Assembly (NCBI GenBank): GCA_020724525.1
Contig: DYGU01000006.1
Location: 13,210-77,209, forward strand
Reading direction: 5' to 3'
Source: Dehalococcoides mccartyi
Lineage (GTDB): Bacteria; Chloroflexota; Dehalococcoidia; GIF9; DYGU01
DNA: 64,000 nucleotides
Position 1 is the stretch's first letter. Every line of letters starts with the position of its first letter. Positions 1,618 through 36,408 of the stretch are shown piece by piece. The notes beneath the pieces are model-generated. The model ran no database searches. It saw only the letters and a program-made list of their open reading frames with translations, and was not told the DNA's origin. The position numbers and the translations under genes were made by a program.

Positions 1618-2934
1618 ATGCGGCAAAGGGAAGGGAGACCACGACTTCTTCAGGCGATGTTGGATGCCTTTACTCTACCTGATTTAAGGCGCAGATTTCT
1701 TATCACACTGGGTATTTTGGTAATCTTTCGCTTTGTAGCTCATGTGCCGTTACCCGGTGTTGACCTGGCTGCATTGCGAGACCTTTTTGAGCGAAATCAA
1801 CTTTTAGGTATGCTTGACCTGTTTAGCGGTGGTGCTATGAGGAATTTTGGCATTGCGGCTATGGGTGTTTTTCCTTATATAACGGCTTCTATTATCATGC
1901 AACTACTGATACCAGTTATTCCTCGCCTCCGGGCTCTTGCCCAGGAGGGAGAGGCTGGTAGACATAGGATTAACCTGATTACCCATTGGCTAACAGCACC
2001 CTTGGCAGCTCTTCAGGGCTATGCCCAAATCACCTTACTCAGGGGAGAGGGTATTATTGCTGACACCGAATTGTTACCAACCGTAGCTATGGTTCTCACC
2101 CTAACTGCCGGCACTATTTTTTGCGTCTGGCTTGGTGAACTCATCACTGAGCGTGGCATTGGTAATGGGATTTCTCTAATAATTTTTGCTGGTATTGTGG
2201 CTGGACTACCAGAAATGATCGGGCGAGGTTATCTGGCTAAAGAGAACTTTAGCGGTTTATTTGTTTTTATCATTCTGGGATTAGCCCTGGCTGTTGTTAT
2301 TGTTATATTCACTGAAGCTCACCGGCGTATTCCAGTCCAATATTCTCGAAGCGTTATGCGAGGGGGTCGGATGTATCGGCAGTCCGGGTCGACTCACATT
2401 CCATTGCGAGTAAACTCTGCTGGTATGATACCCCTCATTTTTGCTATGTCAGTAATGATTTTCCCCAGCACCATAGCCAGTTATCTGGCTCGCCCTCCCG
2501 GGCAAGACCCAAACTGGGCTAATAGAATTATGGAAATCTTTAGCCCTGAAGCTGCCCTTCCCTTAGGTCTCCTTTACTGGGGGTTATATTTTCTGTTTGT
2601 GATTGCTTTCGCCTTTTTCTATACCATGGTAATTTTCCAGCAGATGAATCTGGCACAAACTTTGCAGCGTCAAGGTGGTTTTATCCCTGGTATCCGTCCT
2701 GGGCGTCTTACGGACAATTACCTTAACCAGGTTATTACCCGGATTACCTGGGGAGGTGCTCTCTTCCTAGCAATGGTGGCAATTATGCCTTTTGTGGCTC
2801 GGGAAATTACTGATGTCGGAGCTTTAACCCTTGACAGCATCGGCTTGCTTATTGCGGTTGGTGTTGCTTTGGATACTATGAAACAAATAGAAGCTCAGCT
2901 CCTGATGCGCCGCTATGAAGGTTTCCTGAGATAG
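1618..2934 (+). CDS. secY: preprotein translocase subunit SecY
   Basis: 438 aa polytopic membrane protein with the conserved SecY plug and TM segments. Its position after rplO matches the operon. Confidence 0.9.
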   Translation: MRQREGRPRLLQAMLDAFTLPDLRRRFLITLGILVIFRFVAHVPLPGVDLAALRDLFERNQLLGMLDLFSGGAMRNFGIAAMGVFPYITASIIMQLLIPVIPRLRALAQEGEAGRHRINLITHWLTAPLAALQGYAQITLLRGEGIIADTELLPTVAMVLTLTAGTIFCVWLGELITERGIGNGISLIIFAGIVAGLPEMIGRGYLAKENFSGLFVFIILGLALAVVIVIFTEAHRRIPVQYSRSVMRGGRMYRQSGSTHIPLRVNSAGMIPLIFAMSVMIFPSTIASYLARPPGQDPNWANRIMEIFSPEAALPLGLLYWGLYFLFVIAFAFFYTMVIFQQMNLAQTLQRQGGFIPGIRPGRLTDNYLNQVITRITWGGALFLAMVAIMPFVAREITDVGALTLDSIGLLIAVGVALDTMKQIEAQLLMRRYEGFLR

Positions 2935-10559: not shown

Positions 10560-11980
10560 TATAAACCTAAAAATTTCTTACCGCTTTGCAGTATTTTGGC
10601 GACTTTTTCTTTAGTGCTACTTTCGGCATAAAGCCGGACTAAGGGCTCGGTGCCAGAAAAGCGAATAAGGAGCCAGGAGCCATCAGCTAACACGAAGCGG
10701 AAACCGTCAGTGGTGTCCACCTGGGTTACTTTAACACCAGCAATGTATTCGGGGGAGGTCTGGGCTCGGTCAATAATTGTTGGACGCTTATGAGAAGGCA
10801 GAGGGAAATCAAGACGGTCATAGTAATGAGGTCCGGTTTTTGCGTAAAGGTAGTCTATTAGCTGGGATGGACCTTTACCCGTTTTAACCATAAAGTCAAG
10901 AAAGTAAAGGGCAGCAAGAATGCCATCCCGCTCCGGGACATGTCCCCTAAAGGCATAGCCACCACTTTCTTCTCCACCGATGAGGGCGTTTTTCTCCAGC
11001 ATTAATGGAGCTACATAAGGAAAACCTACAGGTGTCTCATAGACGTTAACCTGGAAAAGCTCTCCTAACCGATAAAGCATGTCAGTAGAACTTACGGTTT
11101 TAATTATGGGTCCCCTCTCCCCCCGCACTTCTAAGAAATAAAGGCTGAGTAACGCAAAGACCTGGTGGGGGTTAAGGAATTCCCCCTTTTCATCAATAAT
11201 GCCAATGCGGTCGGCATCGCCATCATTAGCCAGCCCCACATTGGCTTTTTGCTCCTTGACTAAGTTAGACAGCTTAATCAGGTTTTTGGCAATAGGCTCA
11301 GGCTGGATTCCGGGAAAGAGAGGGTTACGCTCGCTATTTATTTCTGTAATTTGCATTTTGCCACCCTGAAGGAGGGCCTGAAGATAACCAGCCCCAGTCC
11401 CATACATAACATCAATAATTACCTTCAATTGGCTTCGGCGCAGAGGCGTAAGGTCAATCAGTGACTTCAAGTGCTTCATATAAGACGGAGCTGGATCCCA
11501 GTAGTCCACAAGTCCCTTTTTAACAGCAGAGGCAAGAGGCAGTTGCTCTCGTTTGCCGGTAGATATAATGCGGGCAATTTGTTTTTCTACCTGGTTGATG
11601 ATGGGATGGGGAGCACTGGTTCCGTCTAAGGACTTGAATTTAAAACCGTTCCATAAAGCTGGGTTGTGGCTGGCGGTAATGATAATAGCGCCGTCAGCTT
11701 TAGCTGCGACCACGGCATAGCTTATTACAGGTGTTGGTGTTGGCTTAGGACAAAGGTGGACTTTAATTCCATTTCCAGCGACGACCTCTGCGGCTGCCGC
11801 GGCAAATTCCTCTGAAGCAAAACGAGTATCATAGCCAATGATAAGTCCCCCTTCGGGAGTGCCAGTTTCTTTCAGATAATTAGCCACACCCTGGGCGCAG
11901 ATACGCACATTATCAAAGGTGAAGTCTTCACCAATAATTCCCCGCCAGCCATCGGTGCCAAATTTGATTTTGGTGCTCAT
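10559..11980 (-). CDS. phosphoglucomutase/phosphomannomutase family protein
   Basis: 473 aa. The active-site serine loop TASHNPALWNGFKF and the Mg-binding DGDADR motif are present. Confidence 0.8.
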   Translation of the reverse strand: MSTKIKFGTDGWRGIIGEDFTFDNVRICAQGVANYLKETGTPEGGLIIGYDTRFASEEFAAAAAEVVAGNGIKVHLCPKPTPTPVISYAVVAAKADGAIIITASHNPALWNGFKFKSLDGTSAPHPIINQVEKQIARIISTGKREQLPLASAVKKGLVDYWDPAPSYMKHLKSLIDLTPLRRSQLKVIIDVMYGTGAGYLQALLQGGKMQITEINSERNPLFPGIQPEPIAKNLIKLSNLVKEQKANVGLANDGDADRIGIIDEKGEFLNPHQVFALLSLYFLEVRGERGPIIKTVSSTDMLYRLGELFQVNVYETPVGFPYVAPLMLEKNALIGGEESGGYAFRGHVPERDGILAALYFLDFMVKTGKGPSQLIDYLYAKTGPHYYDRLDFPLPSHKRPTIIDRAQTSPEYIAGVKVTQVDTTDGFRFVLADGSWLLIRFSGTEPLVRLYAESSTKEKVAKILQSGKKFLGL

Positions 11981-11997
11981 GTTTTTGGCGTCAAGCT

Positions 11998-13212
11998 CTA
12001 GGACAATCCTGCCTCTTTTCTCAAGATTTCAGCTTTATCAGTCTTTTCCCAGGGGAGGTCGAGGTCATCTCGTCCAAAGTGTCCGTAGACAGCGGTAGGG
12101 CGGTAGATGGGGCGGCGGAGGTTAAGCATCCTGATTATAGCTTCGGGGCGGAGGTCAAAGTGCTTTTTAATCAAGTCTAAGATAATCTCGTCAGACACTT
12201 TCCCGGTGCCAAAGGTCTCAATAGATAAGGAAAGAGGATGAGCCACGCCGATAGAATAAGCCACCTGCACCTCCAAGCGGTCGGCTAAACCAGCAGCGAC
12301 CAGGTTCTTGGCAATATACCGGGTCATATAACCAGCGGAGCGGTCAACTTTGGTGGGGTCTTTTCCGGAAAAGCAGCCGCCACCATGACGACAGGCTCCT
12401 CCATAGGTATCGACAAGGATTTTGCGACCAGTAAAACCAGTGTCAGAGACAGGTCCACCAATCACGAAACGCCCAGCAGAATTGATATAATATTTAGTTT
12501 TACTATCCAGCAAATCAGAGGAAATAACGGCTTTGATTACATTTTGTATCAAGTCACGCTTAATAGTATCGTGGTCAACTTCATCATCATGCTGAGCACC
12601 TAAGACAACACAGTCTACCCGTTTTGGTCTACCGTGATTATATTCTACAGTTACCTGGGATTTGCCATCGGGTCGCAAATAGGGGAGGACTTTCTCTTTT
12701 CTGACCCGAGCCAGCTGTCGGCACAGTTTGTGGGCTAAAGAAATAGGTAATGGCATAAGTTCTGGCGTCTCGGTGCAGGCAAAGCCAATCATCATTCCCT
12801 GGTCGCCAGCACCGGTCTTATCCAAAATCTCGTCGGTAACCTCACCTCCCCTTATCTCCAGGGACTTATCCACTCCGGCGGCAATATCCGGAGATTGTCC
12901 TTTAATGGAAACAACTACCCCACAGGTACGGTATTCAAAACCATACTCAGGACGAGTGTAGCCGGCTTCTTTAATCACCTGACGGACAATATCCGGAATT
13001 TCCACATAGCAATCGGTGGTAATTTCGCCCAGAACCATGATTAGTCCCATAGCCACAGCCGTTTCACAGGCAACTCGAGCCATAGGGTCTTTGGCTAAAA
13101 TGGCATCAAGAATAGCATCTGAAATCTGGTCGCAGAGTTTATCTGGATGCCCTTCGGTAACGGATTCTGAAGTGAAAAAGTAGGAATCAGCTTGGGCAAA
13201 AGTATTCAGCAT
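11998..13212 (-). CDS. metK: S-adenosylmethionine synthetase
   Basis: 404 aa. The [18 protein letters not shown]-terminal motif and the GGGAFSGKD loop are present. Confidence 0.9.
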
Positions 13213-13266
13213 TTTTTCCTTTAATACGAACTGGAAGCCCGCCTCTAATCTTTCGGGCTAATTTTT

Positions 13267-13539
13267 TTATTTCAACTTCTCCTCAATTTTAGTTAATCTT
13301 TCACCCATCCATTTTTGCCCTTCTCTCAGTTCCTTTAATTCGTCGCCCATCCTTCTCTGTTCATCACCCATCCTTCTTTGTTCCTCTTTCAGTTCTTTTA
13401 ATTCATCGTTTATCCGTCCTTGCCCCTCTATCAATCTCCCTAAAAGAAGAGAACCTCGAATCACAAAACCGAGAAGCACCCCGAGCAAAATAGCAATAAG
13501 ATTGAGTATACCCACTATAACCCACAAAACCAGTTCCAT
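13267..13539 (-). CDS. small single-pass membrane protein with a repetitive coiled-coil tail (paralog 1 of 4)
   Basis: 90 aa with an N-terminal hydrophobic helix (LVLWVIVGILNLIAILLGVLLGFVI). It is followed by decapeptide-like repeats (DELKELKEEQRRMGDEQRRMGDELKELREGQKWMGERL). Similar architecture occurs at 25879, 35515 and 56549. Confidence 0.5.
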   Translation of the reverse strand: MELVLWVIVGILNLIAILLGVLLGFVIRGSLLLGRLIEGQGRINDELKELKEEQRRMGDEQRRMGDELKELREGQKWMGERLTKIEEKLK

Positions 13540-13731
13540 TCTTTATAATCACCTCCAAATCTGTTCGTGGGGGGAACCTAAAAGTATTTCCCTCCTTCAG
13601 GAATAATCACGCTTTTCAAATGTTAGCGTGAAATCTTCAGTCAAAAACATGTCTTTTCCTGACTTTCCTATCTTTGATTTTCCCTCCTCAGTGATTATTT
13701 TATCGCAACTATCAAAAATAATTCTTTTAAA

Positions 13732-25878: not shown

Positions 25879-26163
25879 TTAGCTCTTTTGGCTCATATTT
25901 GAAACAATCCTGGCTGTCTTTTCTGGGATTCTTTCAATCAGCTCGGCAATTTTGGCAGTCCTTTCATCCATTCTTTCAAGCAGTTTTACTACTTCCTGAT
26001 GTCTCAATTCTGCTCTTTCATCCATTTTGGCAATTCTTTCATCCAGGTGTAACATCCTTTCATCCATTTTGGCAATAGCTTGCCTCATCAATTTTCCATT
26101 ATTCCAGGCTAAATAAGCAATCACAATTGAAAGCAAGGTAATAGCAAACCCGAAGATTTCCAT
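25879..26163 (-). CDS. small single-pass membrane protein with coiled-coil repeats (paralog 2 of 4)
   Basis: 94 aa with an N-terminal TM helix (FGFAITLLSIVIAYLAW). It is followed by AKMDER-type repeats (QAIAKMDERMLHLDERIAKMDERAELRHQEVVKLLERMDERTAKIAELIERI). Confidence 0.5.
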   Translation of the reverse strand: MEIFGFAITLLSIVIAYLAWNNGKLMRQAIAKMDERMLHLDERIAKMDERAELRHQEVVKLLERMDERTAKIAELIERIPEKTARIVSNMSQKS

Positions 26164-26737: not shown

Positions 26738-27343
26738 TTATTTGGTGGAACTCACCTCAGCCAGGGCATAATGAGGAGGAAGTATCCCTGTAGGACATAG
26801 AGAGAAGCACTCCCTACACCCAGTGCATTCCTTGCGGGCAATTTTGGGGAAAAACACTACCTCCCGTTGTGTTCCTCTTCCAATGAAACCAATAGCGTGC
26901 TTCTTCTTTATCTCAGCGCAGTAACGCACACATAACCCGCAAAGAATGCAGAAAGTTGGCTCCGTCTCAAACCTTGTTTTTATTTCATATCCTATTACAA
27001 ATTCCCTAATTGTTCGGACGCCAGTTATATCATACCTCATCCCGTACTCCCTTAAGGGTGCGATTCCAGGAGCACGAGCCCACATTAGCTCTAAAAGTAT
27101 CTTACGAATCTTGCTTAATCGATTAGTTTCTGTCTTTACTACAAGCCCATCTTCAGCTGGATAACAGTAAGAAGCTACTAATCGGGAGTGTTGTTCCCGA
27201 ACTATTTCCACAGTGCACAATCGGCACGCACCATAGGGAGCCAATTTTTCATGATGGCAGAGGGTAGGAATGTCAATTCCAACAGTTCGTGCTGCCTCAA
27301 GAAGAGTCATCCCTTCCTTAGCTTTGACTTTTTTTCCTGTCAA
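26738..27343 (-). CDS. 2Fe-2S plus multi-4Fe-4S ferredoxin-domain protein (NuoG/HndC N-terminal-module-like, no catalytic domain)
   Basis: 201 aa. It carries the Cys cluster C-x10-C-x2-C (2Fe-2S), a HxxxC..C His-ligated 4Fe-4S, and the CILCGLCVRYC and CTGCRECFSLCP ferredoxin motifs. It is the last gene of the NuoE/NuoF-like operon. Confidence 0.7.
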   Translation of the reverse strand: MTGKKVKAKEGMTLLEAARTVGIDIPTLCHHEKLAPYGACRLCTVEIVREQHSRLVASYCYPAEDGLVVKTETNRLSKIRKILLELMWARAPGIAPLREYGMRYDITGVRTIREFVIGYEIKTRFETEPTFCILCGLCVRYCAEIKKKHAIGFIGRGTQREVVFFPKIARKECTGCRECFSLCPTGILPPHYALAEVSSTK

Positions 27344-27369: not shown

Positions 27370-29290
27370 CTACCCTCGCTTTCGTATTACTTGTGTGCCT
27401 AATGGAACTGGCTCAGGTATTTTTGTACTTGGAAGCTTAACTACGGCACCAAAGCGGGGAGGACAAACTTCAAGGCAGGTACCACAGTTGGTACATTTAT
27501 TCTGGTCTATAATATGGACTAAGCTCTTACCACCATTAATAGCCTCCACTGGACAGTCCCGGAAGCAAATAAGGCAAGCCTGGCACTGGCTGGGTTCAAT
27601 ATAGTAGGCTATCAACCCTTTACAAACGCCAGCTGGACAATACTTTTCTCTTATGTGTGCTTCATACTCGTCTCTAAAGTATTTAATTGAAGTCAGCACA
27701 GGATTAGCGGCTGTAGTCCCTAAAGCGCAAAGGGAAGCGTCGGTGAGCACCTCGGCAATCTCTTCCAGTAAACCAATATCTTCTTCTTTCCCTTCTCCCC
27801 GGCGAATCCTATCTAAAACTTTGAGCATCTGGTATATTCCTTCCCGACAGGGGACACACTTACCACAAGACTCCTCGGTAAGAAAATTTAAGAAGTAACG
27901 TGCCGTATCCACCATGCAAGTGTCCTCATCCATTACTATCATCCCACCAGAACCCGTCATGGAGCCGAGTTTGGAGAGTTCATCAAAGTCAACCGGGGTA
28001 TCCAGGAATTGTTCTGGGATTACTCCACCGGAAGGTCCACCTGTTTGAACTGCTTTAAACTTTTTGCCTTCACGAATTCCGCCACCGATTTTGTAAATGA
28101 TATCTCTCAGGGTTATCCCCATCGGCACTTCTACAAGTCCGGTATTATTTACTTTGCCTACAAGTGAGAATATCTTTGTTCCTTTACTTCCCTCGGTGCC
28201 AAGGGACCTAAACCAATCAGCACCGTTGTTAATAATCAGCGGGACATTTGCCCAGGTTTCCACATTATTGAGGTTGGAAGGCTTTTCCCAAATTCCCTTG
28301 ACTTGCAGTGCGGATGTATTTTGGTCTCGGCTCGCCTACTTTTCCTTCTATCGCTGTCATGAGTGCGCTTGATTCACCAGAGACAAAGGCTCCAGCACCC
28401 CGATGAATAGTGACCTTAAAGTTAAAGCCGGAGCCGAGAATATCTTCTCCTAAAAACCCATATTCTTCAGCTTGCTTTAGGGCAATTTCTAAGTTTTCCA
28501 CAGCCAGAGGATACTCTTGCCGCACATAAACGAATCCCTGGTGCGAACCAATAGCATAAGCTCCGATGATTAAGCCCTCAAGCACACTGTGTGGGTTTTC
28601 CTCCATAAGGCCCCGATCCATATAAGCACCAGGGTCTCCTTCATCACAGTTAACAATAACATATTTAGGTTCTCCTGGAGCCTTGCGGCAGGTTTTCCAT
28701 TTCCTTCCGGCAGGGAACCCTCCGCCACCTCTACCCCTAAGGTCCGCCCTGTCCACTTCGGCTAAAACCTCCTCCGGGGTCATCTCAAAGAGGGCTTTGG
28801 TTAATGCCCGATATCCTCCAAGAGCAATGTAGTCCTCTATACTCTTCGGATTAAGTTTAGAATTATTAGCAAAAATAATCTGGGTCTGATATTTATAAAA
28901 GGGGATTTCGTGTTTATAAACTATCTTTTCGCCCGTGGTAGGGTCAATATAAAGCAGTCTGTCACTAACCTCCTCTTTAGCTGTCCTGTCCACGATTTCT
29001 GGTATATCCTCTGGTTTCACATTGCAGTAACCTGTCCCTTTGGGGGAAACTACGACTATCGGTTCTTTTTCACAAAATCCATGGCAGCCAGTGCTCCTAA
29101 AATCTATCTTTTACTCCAAGCCTTTCTTTGTGAGTTCTTCTATAAAAGCAGCGGCAACTTCCTGGCTCCCATAGGCAAGGCAACCAGTGCCACTACAGAG
29201 GGAAATGCAAAGTTTGTTCGGGTCCCTTTTTAATAAAATATCCTTTCTAAATTCTTCAAGCTCTTTTGGTGATGAAAACCGCTTAGTCAC
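27370..29290 (-). pseudogene. NuoF/HymB-like NAD(P)H-binding 51-kDa-type subunit, interrupted by an in-frame TAA and a +1 frameshift
   Basis: Hand translation from GTG 29290 gives a thioredoxin-like 2Fe-2S domain (CISLCSGTGCLAYGS ... TGCHGFCEKEP). An in-frame TAA splits it at 29111..29113. The FMN/NADH domain follows (GRGGGGFPAGRKWK). The reading frame then shifts by +1 near 28285..28300: ...[12 protein letters not shown] is in one frame and [18 protein letters not shown] in the next. It continues to the [10 protein letters not shown] and [12 protein letters not shown] Fe-S motifs. The track shows this as two ORFs, 28265..29020 and 27370..28263. Confidence 0.7.
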
Positions 29291-29767
29291 TTATTCCTCC
29301 TGACCATAGCTTTGGAGAATCTCTCCTACTTTGGAAACCGAGAGTTTGCCGTGATACTTCCTACCCACCACCATCACCGGTCCCAAAGCACAACAACCAA
29401 GACAATTGACGCTTTTCAAACTGAATTTCAGGTCCGGTGTTGTACCACCTGGAGATATGCCAAGAAATTGCTGGGCTCGTTCCAGTATATGCGGCGAACC
29501 ACGAACATGACACGCGGTACCCAAGCAGACAGTAACTTGATGGCGCCCTCGTGGTATCAGGCTAAAAGCTTTGTAGAAGGTAGCTATATGATAAATTTGG
29601 GTCAGAGGAACACTAAGCCTCTCGCTGAAGTGTATTAGAGCATCTTTAGACAACCACCGGTTTTCTCGTTGAACATGGAGGAGCACTTGAATTAGGAACG
29701 CCTTGTCAGCTCCATATTTATTTATAATTTCATCAATTTTGGTAAGCTCTAACACCATTTCCATCAC
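29291..29767 (-). CDS. NuoE/HymA-like thioredoxin-fold 2Fe-2S subunit (24-kDa-type)
   Basis: 158 aa with the CLGTACHVRG...CLGCCALGP Cys pattern of NuoE. It sits directly upstream of the nuoF-like gene. Confidence 0.85.
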   Translation of the reverse strand: MMEMVLELTKIDEIINKYGADKAFLIQVLLHVQRENRWLSKDALIHFSERLSVPLTQIYHIATFYKAFSLIPRGRHQVTVCLGTACHVRGSPHILERAQQFLGISPGGTTPDLKFSLKSVNCLGCCALGPVMVVGRKYHGKLSVSKVGEILQSYGQEE

Positions 29768-29779
29768 CTCTTTAGCTCT

Positions 29780-30766
29780 TTAAAACCCTTTCTGTCCAGT
29801 AACTCCACCACCAGCTTTGCCCCTTTTTTTGGCTAAAGCCTCATGTCTGGCAACTAACTTGGCTTGGCGTTTAGCTAACTTCACCCAAAAAGCATCTTCC
29901 ATCGTTTGACCGAATTCGCAGTTGGCACAGTGGAAAGCTCGGGAGCAGAGACGGTAAGAGATGTCACCTTTAAGAGCATAGCGGCAAAGTCTCTGGTTTC
30001 CGGGCAATGCCTTTAGCCTTTCTAAGGCAGCGGCAATTTCTGGTGACTCACCGGCAGTCTGCATCTGCTGGTCAAATTCGCAGGTAAGACAATCGTAATC
30101 CTTAGTGCATACCCGGTAAGAAACAACACCCATCTTCATCCAGACGCAGGGCTTAGCGACTTCCGTAGCCGTTACTTCAATTGCTGGTGCTGCCGCTTCT
30201 GTTTTTGCCTTCCGGATCCAGACCCTCGCCGCCAGGTTACCTGGTGCCATCTCCAGTATCCTCTCAAATTCCGCTATTGCTGCCGAATAGTCCCCCTCCT
30301 TGAAGAAGTCCTGACCTAAGGACAGGTACGTGGCAATCTCCTCTTCCAGTTTGCTCACTTCATCTTTCTTCTCCTCCATAATCACTTCTGGGGCAGCCAT
30401 TGGCTTAGCTTCAAGGACTTCCCTGATTAGTTGCTCCAGAGACTCAGGGGCAAATGGTTTAACCAGATAATCTATAGCTCCAGCTTTGGCGGCTTCTACC
30501 GCTGTTTCCACAGACGGATAAGCAGTAATAATGATTGCCTTTAAGGTTGGAATTTGCTCTTTAGCTTCCTTTAAGACCTGGATACCGTCTTTGCCAGGAA
30601 GTTTAAGGTCAAGGACGGCAACACCGCACTCCTGTTTTTTAATTATTTCCAGAGCCTGTTCTCCATCCTCAACAGCAACCACTTCCTGCCCCTCACTCGT
30701 TAGCCAGTCTCTTAATGACTCCCTGACGATGGTTTCATCTTCCACTAACAAAATGGGTTTTGTCAT
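29780..30766 (-). CDS. response regulator: REC domain + helical/TPR-like linker + tandem C-x5-C-x2-C Cys-rich output domain
   Basis: The N-terminal REC has the phospho-acceptor context (VLDLKLPGKDG). The C-terminal half contains two repeats: YRVCTKDYDCLTCEFDQQMQ and YRLCSRAFHCANCEFGQTMED. There is no HTH. It is the first gene of the operon with the nuoE/nuoF-like genes, downstream of a sigma-54-type promoter. Confidence 0.7.
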   Translation of the reverse strand: MTKPILLVEDETIVRESLRDWLTSEGQEVVAVEDGEQALEIIKKQECGVAVLDLKLPGKDGIQVLKEAKEQIPTLKAIIITAYPSVETAVEAAKAGAIDYLVKPFAPESLEQLIREVLEAKPMAAPEVIMEEKKDEVSKLEEEIATYLSLGQDFFKEGDYSAAIAEFERILEMAPGNLAARVWIRKAKTEAAAPAIEVTATEVAKPCVWMKMGVVSYRVCTKDYDCLTCEFDQQMQTAGESPEIAAALERLKALPGNQRLCRYALKGDISYRLCSRAFHCANCEFGQTMEDAFWVKLAKRQAKLVARHEALAKKRGKAGGGVTGQKGF

Positions 30767-30805
30767 TTCTATTACCTCCTCCTTTTTGTCTTCACCTTGA
30801 ATAGT

Positions 30806-30821
30806 CGCAATTTTCGTGCCA
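30806..30821 (-). promoter_or_regulatory. candidate sigma-54 (-24/-12) promoter TGGCAC-N5-TTGC
   Basis: The minus strand reads TTGGCACGAAAATTGCG. It has GG at -24, GC at -12 and an exact 5-nt spacer. The Cys-rich response regulator start codon lies ~40 nt downstream. rpoN and an NtrC-type activator are encoded immediately upstream. Confidence 0.5.
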
Positions 30822-30825
30822 AAAC

Positions 30826-30860
30826 AAGAAACTACCCTGATAACTTCAGGGTAGTTTCTT
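30826..30860 (-). terminator. perfect 15-bp inverted repeat (terminator of the NtrC-type gene and/or activator binding site)
   Basis: aagaaactaccctga-taact-tcagggtagtttctt. On the minus strand it is followed by GTTTT, which runs into the -24 element. Confidence 0.45.
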
Positions 30861-30924
30861 GTTTGTGTCGATTCGCTTTTATGGCTGATGAAGACTACAT
30901 CATAAGTATAAAGAAATTAAACAG

Positions 30925-32286
30925 TCATTTGTCTATTTTATTTACAACAAGGTCATGTGTTTTTACCTTGTTATAGAGGGTCATTCGAGTGATGCCTAAT
31001 ATTTTTGCCGCCTGGCTCAGGTTTCCTTTAGTTTGTCTAAGTACACTCAGGATGTGGCTCTTTTCCAATTCTTTGAGGCTCTTGTCACTGCTCACAGGAG
31101 CTAAAGGTAGATTTTGGTAAGCCAGGTCAGCTAAAGTTACCAGGCTATCTTTAGCTAAAATAACAGCTCTTTCAATGGCATTTTCCAATTCTCGGACATT
31201 GCCCGGCCAGTGGTATTTCAGAAGGAATTCTTTAGCTTCGGGGGCAAAGCCAGCTATTTCTTTTTGATTTTCCAGAGAGAACTTTTTTAGAAAGTGCTCC
31301 GCCAGAAGGGGAATATCTTCCCTTCTTTCTCTTAAAGGTGGTAAATCTATAGTTACCACATTCAGCCGATAATAAAGGTCTTCTCGGAATTGACCTTGCG
31401 CCACCGCTTTTTTCAAGTCTTTGTTAGTAGCTGAGATAATACGCACATTTACTTTTATAGGCTCATTGCCACCCACCCGAGTGAATTCTTTTTCCTCAGT
31501 GACTCTCAGTAAATGAACCTGGGTGTTAGGGCTTATGTCTCCTATTTCGTCGAGAAACAAAGTGCCCTTATTAGCATATTCAAACTTACCCTTTTTTTGG
31601 GCAATAGCACCAGTGAAAGAACCTTTTTCGTGCCCAAAAAGCTCACTTCCTAAAAGAGTCTCTGAAAGAGCGGCACAGCTTATGGCAACAAAAGGCTTGT
31701 CCTTGCGGGGACTCAAATTATGGACCGCTCGAGCAATAAGTTCCTTACCACTGCCGCTTTCTCCAGTAATCAAGACAGTAGCGTTGCTCTTAGCTATTAC
31801 CTTCACCATTTCAAAAATTTGTTGCATTCGATTACTTTTGGCGATGATATTTTCAAAACGATAGCGGTCTTCCAGTTTCTGGCGCAAGGAGATATTTTCC
31901 TTTATTAGCTTCTGGTGCTCCACCAATTTTTTGATGACCAATTCTACTCTCTCGGGACAGAAAGGCTTCTCAATATAGTCGTAAGCACCCTCTTTGATAG
32001 CAGCAATAGCTGTAGCTATACTGCCATAAGCGGTAATGATAATTATTGGAATATCAGGTGAGAGTTCCTTTACTCTTTTGGTTAACTCGATTCCGTCCAT
32101 CCCCGGCATTACCAAGTCAGCAATAATAATGTCTGGAGTTTCTCTTTGAGCCAGTTGTAAGGCTTCACTCCCATTAGAAGCCGTGGAGACGCTGTAGCCG
32201 ATGTCTTTCAGCCACTCCCAGAGGGACTCGCGGATACTGGCTTCGTCATCAACGATTAAAATCCTGGCTGTTTCCTTCAATGGCAA
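30925..32286 (-). CDS. sigma-54-dependent transcriptional response regulator (NtrC family: REC + AAA+ + Fis-type HTH)
   Basis: 453 aa. The REC domain has DDEASIRESL...D. The AAA+ domain has Walker A GESGSGKE, the GAFTGA-type motif GSFTGA, and an ESELFGHEKG loop. The C-terminal HTH is QAAKILGITRMTLYNKVK. Confidence 0.85.
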   Translation of the reverse strand: MPLKETARILIVDDEASIRESLWEWLKDIGYSVSTASNGSEALQLAQRETPDIIIADLVMPGMDGIELTKRVKELSPDIPIIIITAYGSIATAIAAIKEGAYDYIEKPFCPERVELVIKKLVEHQKLIKENISLRQKLEDRYRFENIIAKSNRMQQIFEMVKVIAKSNATVLITGESGSGKELIARAVHNLSPRKDKPFVAISCAALSETLLGSELFGHEKGSFTGAIAQKKGKFEYANKGTLFLDEIGDISPNTQVHLLRVTEEKEFTRVGGNEPIKVNVRIISATNKDLKKAVAQGQFREDLYYRLNVVTIDLPPLRERREDIPLLAEHFLKKFSLENQKEIAGFAPEAKEFLLKYHWPGNVRELENAIERAVILAKDSLVTLADLAYQNLPLAPVSSDKSLKELEKSHILSVLRQTKGNLSQAAKILGITRMTLYNKVKTHDLVVNKIDK

Positions 32287-34238
32287 GCCTCCAGATAAAC
32301 AGTGAAAGTGGTTCCCTTACCTACCTCGCTATCAACCTTGATTCTACCCTTGTGCCTTTGGATAATGCCATGCACTACTGCCAGCCCCAAGCCAACCCCT
32401 TTCTCCCTCTCTTTGGTAGTGAAAAAAGGAGTGAACAATCGGCGCCTATTTTCTTTAGGGATACCACAGCCAGTGTCGGCTACATCTACTTTAACCCACT
32501 CTTGCTTCTTGCCACCGACTCCCTCTTCAGATATTATCTCTGTCTGCAAGGTTAATCTCCCCCCTTGAGGCATAGCCTGGACAGCATTAAGGATGAGATT
32601 GGTAAAAACCTGACAGAGCTGGTCAAAATCAGCCGTGACCAGACAGCCCTCACCACGGAATTTCTTAACTATTTCCACATTTTGCAATTGAGCTTGATGG
32701 CTGACCAAAGACAAAGCTTGGTCAATAACTTGGTTAGCATCAACTACTTTCAATCTTGGCTCAGACTGTCGGGCAAAATCGAGCAGATTTCGAATTATTC
32801 CGGAACTGCGGCTGACTTCAGCTTCTATTTTTGATAGATAACTCAAGGCTTCTTCTTTAGGTAATCCATCACCACCTAATCTTTTAGACAGGAGTCGGGC
32901 ATAAACTAAAACCCCAGTTAAGGGATTATTTAGTTCGTGAGCAATAGCTGCGGCTAATTGTCCCAGAGAAGTTAATTTTTCCGCCTGAATAAGCTGTTCC
33001 TGAGTTGCCTTTAGGCGCTTGACGACAAAGGGCCAGCACATTTCATTCTCGGCTAAGCCGCGGTAGATAGCAATAGCTTTTTCCCGGCAGGTTTTATAGC
33101 CGCAGGCACCACAGTTGAGTTCATCCTCGGGCTTGGTCTTGTCGGTCAAACTCAAAACACCTCGGATTTCTTCTTCAGTGGGGTAGGGGAGGGAGATATA
33201 GCGATTGGTAAACCGTCGCCTTAAATTTAGATCGCCATATCTTATTAAGTCTTTTTCCGTCTGCTCTGGGTCGGTTTCTTTCAAGGTGTATTCAGTAATA
33301 ATTTGTTTTTTCTTAAAATAATTTAATTCGCTTCTAATTGACGGACCGCTGACACAACCTTCACACATAAAAAGCTCAGCGAAGTTAACTCTAATGTCCC
33401 CTTTGTCAATCTCGTGAATAATTTCCAGCACCCTTTCGGCACCTTCCCCCACTACAGCCTCTTTATCCAAAGGATCGGTGGAAACTCCGATTGCTTTACA
33501 AAATCCACCAGAAATAGCACATAATCGCCCCAAATTTGGTTTGGGACCGAAAAAGGGAGTCTCCCCTAAACTGGCCGGGTCGATAGCTTTTTGGGCAAGA
33601 AGTTCTTCAAGTTCATCAAAGGTTAAAACAGCGTCAATTACACCACCTACCTTCTCATCATCCCGCTCTGCCCTCTTGGCAACACTGGGGGCGATAAAGA
33701 CCACCTTTGTCTCAGGTGGGTAGTATTTCTTAATCAACCTACCCATAGCAATCATGGGGGGCACAATAGGCGCTAAGTTATCAATTAACTGGGGGTAATA
33801 TTTCTCAATATAATAGACTACAGCCGGACATTGAGCGCTAATAATTGGTTTTTGCTTGCTTGTCTTTATTAGTTTTCGGTATTCCTGAATAATGAGGTCA
33901 GCACCAAAGGCTCCTTCTACTACTTGGTTGAACCCCAGTTCTAAGAGAGCAGTTACCAGTTGCCTTGGGCGGATTTCGGGAAAGGCTACCGGGAAGGAAT
34001 AATCAAGGCAAGCGATAGGTGCCGGGGATTTACTCAGTAAAACCCTTGTCGCTCCGATATCGCTTTCTATTTGCTTGGCTTTCTGGCTACAGACTCGGAC
34101 ACAGTTACCACAAGCAATACACCGTTCCTTCATCACTTCAGCCAAGCCCTCTTCCACTTTAATGGCATTAGCTGGACAGCTACGGATACAAGCATAGCAA
34201 CCCTTGCAATTGTCTTTATTAGTGAAGATGACCGCCAT
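32277..34238 (-). CDS. sensor histidine kinase with N-terminal 2x[4Fe-4S] ferredoxin + degenerate [FeFe]-hydrogenase H-cluster-like domain (HydS-like sensory module)
   Basis: 653 aa. The N-terminus has CKGCYACIRSCP and CIACGNCVRVC ferredoxin motifs. A ~300 aa region follows with hydrogenase-like L1/L2/L3 remnants (SAQCPAVV, IAPSVAKRAE with Cys replaced by Ser, ELFMCEGCVSGP). HisKA (AAAIAHELNNPLT) and HATPase_c (GCGIPKENRRRLFTPFFTTK...GLGL) domains follow. It overlaps the NtrC-type gene by 10 nt. Confidence 0.8.
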   Translation of the reverse strand: MAVIFTNKDNCKGCYACIRSCPANAIKVEEGLAEVMKERCIACGNCVRVCSQKAKQIESDIGATRVLLSKSPAPIACLDYSFPVAFPEIRPRQLVTALLELGFNQVVEGAFGADLIIQEYRKLIKTSKQKPIISAQCPAVVYYIEKYYPQLIDNLAPIVPPMIAMGRLIKKYYPPETKVVFIAPSVAKRAERDDEKVGGVIDAVLTFDELEELLAQKAIDPASLGETPFFGPKPNLGRLCAISGGFCKAIGVSTDPLDKEAVVGEGAERVLEIIHEIDKGDIRVNFAELFMCEGCVSGPSIRSELNYFKKKQIITEYTLKETDPEQTEKDLIRYGDLNLRRRFTNRYISLPYPTEEEIRGVLSLTDKTKPEDELNCGACGYKTCREKAIAIYRGLAENEMCWPFVVKRLKATQEQLIQAEKLTSLGQLAAAIAHELNNPLTGVLVYARLLSKRLGGDGLPKEEALSYLSKIEAEVSRSSGIIRNLLDFARQSEPRLKVVDANQVIDQALSLVSHQAQLQNVEIVKKFRGEGCLVTADFDQLCQVFTNLILNAVQAMPQGGRLTLQTEIISEEGVGGKKQEWVKVDVADTGCGIPKENRRRLFTPFFTTKEREKGVGLGLAVVHGIIQRHKGRIKVDSEVGKGTTFTVYLEACH

Positions 34239-34345: not shown

Positions 34346-35443
34346 TTATTTATTTGTCATTGCCAAGAGTCTCCTTTGTCGTGAGGATGGGATTTTTAGC
34401 TCTTTCCTGAGACTGGCTATAGTACGTCGGGACAGATATACGCCAAATTTCCTCTCCAGACTAACCTTTATTTTCTGGTCACTAAGAGGTTTTGCCTCTT
34501 GTTCAAGAATTTGCTTGAGCAACTCCTTTCGGAACTTCTTAGGGTTTGGGAAAAAGTCTTTAAGTGCTCTTTCGCCCCAGGGAGTTTCAAGACTTTTATT
34601 AGCGATAACTCGGCTGATAGTGCTTGGGGTTAAGCCAATTTTGGATGCCAGTTCCTTTTGACTGAAAGGCAACAACGCTTTTGGGTTGCCCGATTCAAAA
34701 AATGGAGTTTGCTTTTCAACAATGTTCTGTATTACCTGGTGTAAACTATTTTTCCGGCTATTTATTAACTCTAACTTTCGTAAGAGCTGCCTTATCTCTT
34801 TGACTTCGGTATTGTTGAAAACTCCGTCGTGGAGTAACTGTTCCAGCTTCATATAATCAACAACAAATTTACCTCGGGCATAAGCTGGGGAGAAGTAAGC
34901 AACAGATAACCCCTCAGTTCCCCTTTCTATTGCGGCAACTTTGGAATAATGTTTTCCTTTGTCTGAGATAGAAGAAGGGTGGTAGAACTCGGTGGCAATG
35001 GAAAATTCGTCAATAAGACTGTTTATTTTAGACACTTCTGAAACTTCCAGCTGACACTGGTGGGCAATTTCCTCAACAGTAATCCCGGGCTCCGGGTATA
35101 AGAAATATTGTTTGAAATTGTCTATACCCAGATTTCTGATTAGACCAACCAGTTCCTCTTTATTGGCGATCAAAGATTCCACATCAACCGAGCTTGGGGC
35201 GGCGACAATTTCCTCTTTAAGTTCATAAAAACGGCGAGAAAGATTGGCTTTTGGGAATCGTTGATAGTGAATTACCTTCTCTTGTTCCCGGAGGCGCTTA
35301 AATAGTGAGCTCTTTTCTACCCCAAAAATTAAATACTGGAACTCCACTTCCGACATTTCCAGCAAATTGGCCTGCTCTATTCGGAGAAAAAGTTTGAGTT
35401 CTTGTCTTGTTTCCAGAGATTGGGTTATGTTTGGATTTACCAC
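34346..35443 (-). CDS. rpoN: RNA polymerase sigma-54 factor (short form)
   Basis: 365 aa. The C-terminal RpoN box (YLSRRTIASLRKELKIPSSRQRR) and the HTH (ASKIGLTPSTISRVIANKS) are present. The Leu/Gln-rich N-terminal region I is short. The protein is shorter than typical RpoN (450-500 aa). Confidence 0.8.
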   Translation of the reverse strand: MVNPNITQSLETRQELKLFLRIEQANLLEMSEVEFQYLIFGVEKSSLFKRLREQEKVIHYQRFPKANLSRRFYELKEEIVAAPSSVDVESLIANKEELVGLIRNLGIDNFKQYFLYPEPGITVEEIAHQCQLEVSEVSKINSLIDEFSIATEFYHPSSISDKGKHYSKVAAIERGTEGLSVAYFSPAYARGKFVVDYMKLEQLLHDGVFNNTEVKEIRQLLRKLELINSRKNSLHQVIQNIVEKQTPFFESGNPKALLPFSQKELASKIGLTPSTISRVIANKSLETPWGERALKDFFPNPKKFRKELLKQILEQEAKPLSDQKIKVSLERKFGVYLSRRTIASLRKELKIPSSRQRRLLAMTNK

Positions 35444-35514: not shown

Positions 35515-35817
35515 CTATCCCCTCTGCAAGGATCGAGCTATCATCTCCTGACCTTCCTGGAGCCTTGTAAATCCTTCCTTGAGGTGCCTGGCTATTGACT
35601 GTTGCCCCTCACTAATCTCTTTTAGCCCGTCCATAAGCACTTTCTGTCCTTCCCTAATCTCTCTTAGCCCGTCCATAAGCGCTCTTTGCCCGTCAACAAG
35701 CGCTTTTTGCCCGTCCATAAGCAACCTCATATTGCGTCCATTTGCTCTCCAGATATAAGCAAGGATTACACCGAGAAAAGCCAGGGCTGCTCCTATCATT
35801 CCTGTGGCTATTTCCAT
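35515..35817 (-). CDS. small single-pass membrane protein with coiled-coil repeats (paralog 3 of 4)
   Basis: 100 aa with the TM helix MIGAALAFLGVILAYIW. It carries LMDGQ-type decapeptide repeats (LLMDGQKALVDGQRALMDGLREIREGQKVLMDGLKEISEGQQ). Confidence 0.5.
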   Translation of the reverse strand: MEIATGMIGAALAFLGVILAYIWRANGRNMRLLMDGQKALVDGQRALMDGLREIREGQKVLMDGLKEISEGQQSIARHLKEGFTRLQEGQEMIARSLQRG

Positions 35818-36006: not shown

Positions 36007-36408
36007 TTAACCCTTTAAAGGACCAAGGGCTCTCACCTTTTCCGTCATTTCATTTACGACAGAGACAAAGCGGTCACCTTCTGAAGCTGACACCCAGTCC
36101 AATCTCAGTCTTTCCTCTTCAATCCCCATCTGGACTAACATTTTCTTTAGTAATGGTATACGCCGTATAGTCTTATAATTACCTTCGGTATAATGACAAT
36201 CTCCGGGGTGACAACCAAGAGCCAAAACTCCATTAGCACCCAACTAGAAAGCCTTAAGGATAAAGGTAAGCTCCACTCTGCCACTACACATTACTCTTAT
36301 TGTTCTGACATTATGGGCACACTTCATCCTGGCTGTCCCAGCCAGGTCTGCTCCCCGGTAGGAACACCAGTTACACAGGGAACCGATAATCTTAGGTTTA
36401 AAGCTCAT
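36007..36408 (-). pseudogene. MvhD-like hydrogenase/heterodisulfide-reductase-associated Fe-S subunit with an in-frame TAG
   Basis: Hand translation from ATG 36408 gives [54 protein letters not shown]. An in-frame TAG (36244..36246) follows. It then continues LGANGVLALGCHPGDCHYTEGNYKTIRR..., which is the MvhD signature. The track shows only the distal 78 aa. Confidence 0.65.

Follow-up and report, generated by a model that had tools for sequence, protein, structure and literature searches.

The regulator and its domains

The DNA analyzed here, referred to as the window, is a 64,000-nucleotide (nt) stretch of a Dehalococcoides mccartyi contig (DYGU01000006.1), and all coordinates given without a locus name refer to it. 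At 29780..30766 (-), including the stop codon, it carries an open reading frame (ORF) for a response regulator of 328 amino acids (aa), in which a receiver (REC) domain is followed by a TPR-like unit and two four-cysteine (Cys4) repeats. The gene lies behind a predicted sigma-54 promoter, downstream of genes for a sigma-54-like protein, a hydrogenase-like histidine kinase and an NtrC-type activator, and upstream of NuoE-, NuoF- and HoxU-like genes. A strong Shine-Dalgarno sequence, GGAGGAGG, is present at 30775..30783 (-), 8-9 nt 5' of the ATG. An identical copy of the protein occurs in three other assemblies, and 29 orthologous loci encode the regulator as one ORF of 317-412 aa.

The receiver domain (residues 5-114; 30425..30754, -) matches Pfam PF00072 with E 4.5e-29 and 101 bits against a cut-off of 30.2. 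It contains the phospho-acceptor D53, the acid pocket E9/D10, T81 and K103. Among the 30 aligned REC-fused orthologs (group B, described below), D10, D53, T81 and K103 are invariant. As read from the sequence, the receiver holds every residue that phosphorylation requires and looks functional, and the canonical REC domain claimed by an earlier note on this DNA is upheld. The same note saw a helical, TPR-like linker behind the receiver. This is borne out by a single TPR-like unit at residues ~146-188 (30203..30331, -), which scores just above the cut-off of Pfam TPR_14 (24.8 vs 23.5 bits). A PDB profile search matched the linker to TPR proteins only. AlphaFold2 (AF2) predicts three helices in this region with a predicted local distance difference test score (pLDDT) of >90, and Pfam shows one unit at threshold. 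TPR proteins usually carry three or more tandem TPR motifs.

Family and profile scans covered Pfam and NCBIfam, with thresholds up to E = 10 for the Cys region, together with PDB sequence and profile searches. Beyond residue ~195, neither Pfam nor NCBIfam recognizes a domain, and neither finds a DNA-binding domain anywhere in the regulator, as the earlier note had also stated. Only the REC part (residues 3-125) aligns to AtoC/NtrC models. On its domain content, the regulator classifies as a true member of the receiver family and as neither an NtrC activator nor a member of a known Cys-rich family. An Rfam scan returned nothing in the regulator region.

The Cys4 module

Both Cys repeats have the spacing C-x12-C-x5-C-x2-C, with four Cys each. 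Repeat 1 reads C207-x12-C220-x5-C226-x2-C229-EFDQQMQ (30059..30148, -) and repeat 2 reads C261-x12-C274-x5-C280-x2-C283-EFGQTMED (29894..29986, -), and each motif is invariant in the aligned orthologs. The tandem motif described earlier, YR(V/L)C-x5-C-x2-CEF-x-Q-x-M, is present, but its three-Cys spacing was incomplete, the fourth Cys lying 12 residues upstream. All eight Cys, whose conservation in orthologs had been set beforehand as a test of the earlier reading, are kept in the 30 orthologs without exception. The pattern of eight invariant Cys in two homologous units implies two Cys4 metal sites in the module, which would bind Zn or Fe-S. Related proteins with a REC domain and one repeat have His in the first Cys position and still carry the initial Cys of a vestigial second repeat. 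This combination hints at interleaved ligands.

The known Cys-rich family sought for residues ~200-328 by profile search did not turn up. The Pfam and NCBIfam scans of the Cys region and the PDB searches gave no family or relative, and the weak Pfam matches were to zinc fingers only (zf-CXXC, E 0.078). Two AF2 models were made. The second, of the Cys domain alone, reached a best pLDDT of 79 with a predicted TM-score (pTM) of 0.62 (59-65 in the other four models). In its prediction, a short beta-hairpin separates the first two Cys and a helix begins at C-x2-C, and a structure search with this model gave no neighbor. A Lys/Arg-rich C-terminal helix (29819..29893, -) is long and has a pLDDT of ~90 in both AF2 models. 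The literature searches yielded no account of the Cys module or of the gene cluster, and neither the output module nor its conserved place as the first gene targeted by the circuit appears to have been described so far.

Most response regulators are transcription factors, and the regulator could be one with a new DNA-binding domain, in which the Cys4 modules act like zinc fingers and the basic C-terminal helix contacts DNA. Such a role would fit the confidently helical, Lys/Arg-rich C-terminus and the fact that the sole weak Pfam matches are zinc fingers. However, these matches are not significant, and a weak search revealed no recurring operator-like motif beside the promoter. Furthermore, the fusion partners of the module elsewhere include Fe-S subunits, GcvH-like domains and, in protein P0340, a separate HTH_8 DNA-binding domain. 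DNA binding by the module is very unlikely.

A conserved, predicted sigma-54 promoter

A -24/-12 element of the sigma-54 type, TTGGCAC-N5-TTGCG (TTGGCACGAAAATTGCG), is located at 30806..30822 (-), and the predicted transcription start is near 30795. The element (TGGCACGAAAATTGCG) fits the consensus TGGCAC-N5-TTGCW at 10 of 11 positions, with the GG and GC doublets 10 nt apart. A single match of this kind is not significant alone; the 64-kb window contains two against 0.62 expected. The second, TGGCA-N6-TTGC at 2651..2665 (+), falls inside a long secY-like ORF (1618..2934) and was rejected as a chance match.

The orthologous loci were compared over the 320 nt upstream of the gene in each. They comprise 55 Dehalococcoidia genome loci with a REC-fused gene, plus many metagenome loci. 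TGGC-N7-TTGC occurs in 50 of the 55 genome loci, and the expectation is ~0.005 per 320-nt region. The usual form is TGGCAAGAAAATTGCA, 30-150 nt 5' of the start codon. In each REC-fused locus scanned, the recurrent TGGCA-type match precedes a REC gene, and the remaining matches lie at scattered places that differ from locus to locus. In a few loci the promoter is present twice, each copy standing before a REC gene. The Cys-module genes of other phyla are likewise preceded by promoters of this type, namely TGGCATAATTTTTGCT (L088), TGGCACGCCCATTGCT (L086) and AGGCACGAAGCTTGCA (L092), and by a weaker match in L089, TGGCATGTTCTTTGAT. A sigma-70 scan gave matches at chance level (17 found, 13.4 expected). 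What a sigma-54 promoter requires is encoded nearby, with the gene for an NtrC-type AAA+ activator at 30925..32286 and a sigma-54-like gene at 34346..35443. Because the element is conserved across orthologs far beyond chance, it is accepted as a real, conserved -24/-12 element and as the probable sigma-54 promoter of the regulator gene, as judged from this comparison; the claim of the earlier note stands. A k-mer search upstream of the promoter found no activator site or recurring operator motif, but it was uninformative, its signal being dominated by the 3' end of the ntrC-like coding region.

The inverted repeat upstream of the promoter

A hairpin with a perfect 19-bp stem, a 5-nt loop and a subsequent T run is present at 30822..30864 (-; dG -29.7 kcal/mol, z -7.4). 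It begins 58 nt past the stop codon of the ntrC-like gene and is directly 5' of the promoter. The perfect inverted repeat that had been noted before the promoter is thus there, but with a stem of 19 bp and not 15 bp. In 39 of the 50 loci, the promoter is immediately preceded by a hairpin of <= -10 kcal/mol. When 28 hairpins are aligned, a consensus stem of 10 pairs emerges; all 10 show compensatory changes, and several are G-U on the transcribed strand. The T tail in the window is no more than TTTT, and 6-7 of 8 bases are T in most orthologs. A simple terminator scan of the window did not list the hairpin. Because of the compensatory and G-U changes and the T run, the repeat is read as an RNA terminator. 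It is probably the intrinsic terminator of the ntrC-like gene, which ends the regulatory operon, and would keep read-through transcription from reaching the sigma-54 promoter.

A different reading is that the inverted repeat is the binding site of the activator, an upstream activating sequence, and not a terminator. The dyad has a partly conserved core, GCTA(C/T)CC...GG(G/A)TAGC, and similar-looking half-sites (GTAGC/GCTAC) are found upstream of the promoters of L086 and L088. However, the dyad abuts the -24 element, with its center near -45, which leaves too little distance for the DNA looping by which such sites usually work. The G-U wobble on the transcribed strand, the compensation at every pair and the T-rich tail of most loci also speak for RNA, and ~10 loci keep the promoter without any dyad. 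An activator site is improbable here, and termination is the preferred role of the repeat.

The kinase, the NtrC-type activator and the sigma-54-like gene

The gene directly upstream of the terminator (30925..32286, -) encodes an NtrC-type enhancer-binding response regulator consisting of REC, a sigma-54 AAA+ domain and HTH_8 (Pfam Sigma54_activat, E 4.4e-73). In most orthologous loci, too, the REC-Cys gene comes directly after an NtrC-type gene. In the window, the NtrC-type gene is preceded by a gene for a histidine kinase (32277..34238, -), assigned by Pfam and motif alignment, with an N-terminal sensory-type [FeFe]-hydrogenase domain followed by HisKA and HATPase_c. The regulator had been called an orphan. 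It is not one: a kinase gene and an NtrC-type gene immediately precede it here, as they do in most of the 55 REC-fused loci.

The N-terminus of the kinase contains two Fer4 motifs, the hydrogenase domain (H-domain) and Cx2Cx4Cx16C. At residues ~180-192, the H-cluster P2 motif GPC(V/I)AKK.E reads APSVAKRAE, with Ser in place of Cys. The P2 position is Asp in the closest relative (L012) and Cys in nine other orthologs, one of which lies beside hydE/hydG/hydF. The kinase sensor of the window lineage may bind no standard H-cluster, as judged by this motif. In L089, a locus from outside Dehalococcoidia, hydE, hydG and hydF precede the kinase, which argues that its H-domain binds a real H-cluster. 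In some group B loci, the kinase has no H-domain.

The cluster is headed by a gene for a short, divergent sigma-54-like protein of 365 aa (34346..35443, -), which matches Pfam Sigma54_DBD (E 1e-30) and RpoN in the PDB. A gene of this kind heads the cluster in most REC-fused Dehalococcoidia loci. The protein aligns only to profile positions 192-434 of TIGR02395, with 119 bits vs a cut-off of 277, and retains the HTH, the RpoN box and an N-terminus that resembles region I. Because the gene is short and its score is below the NCBIfam cut-off, a sigma-54-like function is inferred for it. The protein may be a dedicated sigma factor, judging from the conserved place of its gene at the head of the cluster.

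In L089 (4998..5525) and L092 (4480..5097), two clusters from outside Dehalococcoidia, a gene for a Peptidase_M54 (archaemetzincin-like) protein is found between the genes for the hydrogenase-domain kinase and the NtrC-type protein.

Downstream genes and state of the locus

The regulator is followed by a gene for a NuoE/HoxE-like [2Fe-2S] subunit (29291..29767, -; Pfam PF01257, E 1.1e-47). Between the stop codon of the regulator (29780-29782) and the NuoE-like start (29767 or 29758), there is a gap of 12-21 nt. Close as they are, the two genes do not overlap, so the translational coupling that had been claimed for them is not established. The next gene, for a NuoF/HymB-like flavoprotein (27370..29290, -), is disrupted by an in-frame TAA (29111-29113), which falls inside the N-terminal Trx-like 2Fe-2S domain, and by a 1-nt frameshift at ~28295, near a GGG run (28295-28297). 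Intact orthologs of ~640 aa are found in L012, L057, L076 and L079, and the broken ORF pattern recurs in L007 and L008, a JGI and a Logan assembly. The third gene (26738..27343, -) encodes a HoxU-like [2Fe-2S]/[4Fe-4S] subunit of 201 aa with no catalytic domain (Pfam Fer2_4 and Fer4; NCBIfam HoxU, E 2.5e-33).

Upstream of the cluster, an MvhD/FlpD-like gene (~36007..36408, -) contains an in-frame TAG at ~36244-36246 (ILKAF*LGANGV). In the JGI copy, L007, it is split into two ORFs of 54 and 78 aa.

The lesions in the window would indicate either a population that is losing the pathway or shared errors. The regulator, the promoter and the terminator are intact. It could be that the whole cluster is decaying in this genome and that the regulator has no current role with the neighboring enzyme genes. 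The stop codon and frameshift in the NuoF-like gene, the TAG in the MvhD-like gene, the replacement of the P2 Cys by Ser in the kinase and the recurrence of the broken NuoF pattern in separate assemblies are all in line with decay. However, the NtrC-type, kinase, NuoE-like and HoxU-like genes are intact along with the regulator and its signals. The assemblies may also sample one population, and sequencing error is possible. Decay of the cluster has only a small chance of being the correct account, about as small as that of a DNA-binding regulator.

Gene neighborhoods in Dehalococcoidia

The part of the regulator that comprises the TPR unit and the two Cys repeats (TPR-Cys2) has more than 100 homologs, nearly all of them in Dehalococcoidia. 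Their labels are uninformative ('response regulator', 'hypothetical protein', 'TPR repeat protein') or evident mis-annotations. Two paralog groups exist in Dehalococcoidia, REC-less (group A) and REC-fused (group B). Group A comprises ~20 loci with proteins of ~208 aa that have no REC domain, and no sigma-54 element accompanies them. The group A gene stands in divergent orientation to the genes for a NarL-type regulator and a HisKA_3 kinase, and is itself followed by ThiL and TsaE. The group B order is the short sigma-54-like gene, the hydrogenase-domain kinase, NtrC and REC-TPR-Cys2, and is shared by the great majority of the 55 genome loci and by many metagenome loci.

The genes downstream of the group B regulator vary. 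NuoE-NuoF-HoxU-like genes follow in the window, in L012, L051 (up to the contig end), L052, L057, L066, L076 and L079, and in several metagenome loci, about one-fifth in all. In L078, the same three genes follow a TPR-Cys2 gene without a REC match. About 11 loci instead have genes for an HdrD-like protein, an HdrA-like fusion of ~1130 aa, MvhD and a further HdrD-like protein. A HycI-type hydrogenase maturation protease gene is downstream in L010, L011 and L026, and convergent NiFe hydrogenase and formate-dehydrogenase-like genes are found in L020, L025 and L035. A second gene, encoding REC and one Cys repeat, is present downstream in about 12 loci, and a gene for a single-domain REC protein lies between nuoF and hoxU in L052, L066 and L079. 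Some loci have unrelated genes downstream of the regulator. As far as gene content tells, the variable partners belong to hydrogen or electron-bifurcation functions. The earlier statement that the regulator heads a NuoE/NuoF-like operon is correct for the window, but it extends to only that one-fifth of the Dehalococcoidia loci, and the NuoF-like gene of the window is broken.

In L052 and L066 (about 11100..13600), the contexts of groups A and B are merged into one cluster. The merged order is sigma-54-like gene, kinase, NtrC, REC-TPR-Cys2, NuoE, NuoF, REC, HoxU, NarL-type regulator, stand-alone TPR-Cys2 and kinase.

The Cys module in other phyla

Profile searches and a metagenome scan identified loci in other phyla. 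Outside Dehalococcoidia, the module lacks REC and TPR and stands behind an uncatalogued Cys-rich N-terminus, M-x-CPFLEE...YC..., here called CPFL. In a first arrangement, a kinase, NtrC and a sigma-54 promoter are followed by CPFL-Cys2 (116-185 aa), NuoE, NuoF and a HoxU-Cys1-GcvH-like protein, that is, a HoxU-like subunit fused to one Cys repeat and a GcvH-like domain. This arrangement is complete in L088, L089, L097, L098 and L099; L092 and L096 start alike and stop at a contig edge. In a second arrangement, a kinase and NtrC are followed by a CPFL-Cys2-GcvH fusion (L086, L100-L111; GCV_H E 2.7e-26). No GcvH-like or CPFL domain was found in the window or in the Dehalococcoidia loci.

The Cys-module gene comes immediately after NtrC in 14 of the 16 loci from other phyla for which upstream sequence is available. 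In seven loci, the module is next to NuoE/NuoF/HoxU-type genes, and in L099 a gene for REC and one Cys repeat is inserted between nuoE and nuoF. Among other architectures are P0333, a lone repeat of ~90 aa, and P0340, in which a repeat is joined to HTH_8. From these gene orders and fusions, the Cys module is judged to be genuinely linked to NuoE/NuoF/HoxU-type genes across phyla. The operon of the other phyla looks like a NuoEF-type complex without an obvious catalytic subunit.

Role of the regulator

We tentatively favor, at slightly short of an even chance, the view that the regulator is an auxiliary response regulator of a hydrogen/redox-sensing circuit and the first gene behind its conserved sigma-54 promoter. 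With the same reserve, we take it to be a phospho-controlled, metal-binding adaptor that acts on Fe-S flavoprotein modules and does not bind DNA. The hydrogenase-like kinase would sense H2 or redox state and would phosphorylate both the NtrC-type protein and the REC-TPR-Cys2 regulator. Together with the sigma-54-like factor, the NtrC-type protein would fire the promoter, and the regulator would be made. Each Cys4 module would bind metal, either Zn or an Fe-S cluster, and the TPR and Cys4 part would dock on Fe-S flavoprotein modules, NuoE/NuoF/HoxU-like here and Hdr/Mvh-like in other genomes. Phosphorylation of the regulator would then act post-translationally, on the activity or assembly of the enzyme and not on DNA binding. 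The earlier idea of a phospho-regulated accessory subunit that is not a transcription factor draws support from the intact REC domain, the lack of a known DNA-binding domain and the NuoEF link, but is weakened by the small share of loci in which that link exists.

Several observations weigh against an adaptor that acts on enzymes. NuoEF adjoins the regulator in only about one-fifth of the Dehalococcoidia loci, its constant neighbors being the kinase and NtrC, and this constancy fits a purely regulatory role equally well. The REC-less paralog sits away from redox genes, beside the NarL-type system, ThiL and TsaE. In the window itself, the NuoF-like gene is, by its ORF lesions, a pseudogene and the regulator is intact. 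The first AF2 model, which spanned the TPR unit, Cys2 and the helix, left the Cys region unfolded at a pLDDT of ~40. Finally, the joining of a Cys repeat to HTH_8 in P0340 suggests a sensor or dimerization role.

The main rival account is that the regulator modulates its own circuit by feedback. Its targets would be the kinase or the NtrC-type activator: it could compete for phosphoryl groups, or else bind the activator via its TPR and Cys2 part, in a manner resembling PspA-PspF. This account fits the tighter synteny with the regulators: the most closely conserved neighbors are the kinase and NtrC and not NuoEF, and the Cys-module gene also directly follows NtrC in the other phyla. The REC domain of the regulator is 42-50% identical to that of the adjacent NtrC, and in L110 the Cys-module gene is the sole gene of the regulated unit. 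However, adjacency to NtrC is already explained by the position of the gene as the first in the target operon. The HoxU-like/GcvH-like fusions and the REC-Cys genes inside nuoEF operons point to the enzyme instead. Feedback is a serious candidate but an unlikely one, and an adaptor that acts on Fe-S flavoprotein modules is the reading retained here.

A broader proposal can be made for the module as a whole. C-x12-C-x5-C-x2-C might be an undescribed metal or Fe-S domain that serves as the dedicated output or partner of [FeFe]-hydrogenase-kinase/NtrC/sigma-54 circuits in several phyla. It would link H2 sensing to an uncharacterized NuoE-NuoF-HoxU-GcvH-like redox complex, and in Dehalococcoidia its fusion to REC and TPR would place it under direct phospho-control. 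We regard this generalization as possible but somewhat doubtful. If true, it would define a new class of response-regulator output that acts on an enzyme complex.

Relation to known systems

The HoxBC-HoxJ-HoxA system of Cupriavidus necator and the HupUV-HupT-HupR system of Rhodobacter likewise combine a hydrogenase-type sensor, a kinase and an NtrC-family regulator that acts on hydrogenase/diaphorase genes. The target promoters of the C. necator Hox system are sigma-54 dependent. In contrast to the separate [NiFe] regulatory hydrogenase of these systems, the sensor in the window is an [FeFe]-type H-domain fused to the kinase. The window cluster also differs in having a dedicated short sigma-54-like gene and, as the first target gene, a second regulator with a Cys4 output. 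To our knowledge, no such second regulator exists in the Hox and Hup systems.

Group C and D putative sensory [FeFe]-hydrogenases include HydS of Thermotoga maritima and Thermoanaerobacter mathranii (PMC8163306). Like HydS, the window kinase has an N-terminal two-[4Fe-4S] domain, an H-domain without the proton-transfer Cys (SAQCP for TSCCP) and a C-terminal Cx2Cx4Cx16C motif (PMC8163306). Unlike HydS, it is fused to HisKA and HATPase_c rather than to PAS (PMC8163306), and its P2 Cys is Ser. The signaling route of the putative sensory [FeFe]-hydrogenases has been stated to be unknown (PMC8163306). The window and ~100 related loci offer a testable chain from a sensor H-domain-kinase through an NtrC-type activator and a sigma-54-like factor to a promoter and a Cys4 protein as first target. 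This chain bears on the open question of the signal output and targets of these hydrogenases (PMC8163306). The gene clusters suggest that uncultured Dehalococcoidia regulate hydrogen/electron-bifurcation genes via sigma-54, and literature searches found no paper describing such control in Dehalococcoidia.

In having a canonical REC domain and a remainder that includes TPR and is predicted not to bind DNA, the regulator resembles REC-TPR and stand-alone CheY-like proteins. Unlike these, its output adds two uncatalogued Cys4 modules, which are found elsewhere fused to Fe-S and GcvH-like proteins. It would resemble the PspA-PspF system, in which the first gene of a sigma-54/activator-dependent operon encodes a regulatory protein that does not bind DNA. 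However, there is no sequence relationship, and the window protein has a receiver and a putative metal-binding module.

The downstream genes are similar to the NADH-linked diaphorase modules HoxEFU, HydBC and HymAB, with NuoE-like, NuoF-like (N-terminal Trx-like 2Fe-2S, C-terminal 2x[4Fe-4S]) and HoxU-like members. In contrast to those modules, the window operon lacks a catalytic subunit of either the hydrogenase or the formate dehydrogenase kind, and its NuoF-like member appears to be a pseudogene. The HoxU-like subunit of the other phyla departs further in carrying a Cys repeat and a GcvH-like domain.

Flanking genes

The cluster is flanked by two paralogous small ORFs, at 35515..35817 (-) and 25879..26163 (-), which encode proteins of 100 and 94 aa. 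Both begin with an N-terminal hydrophobic helix that is followed by short helical repeats (MDG..EGQ and MDER..).

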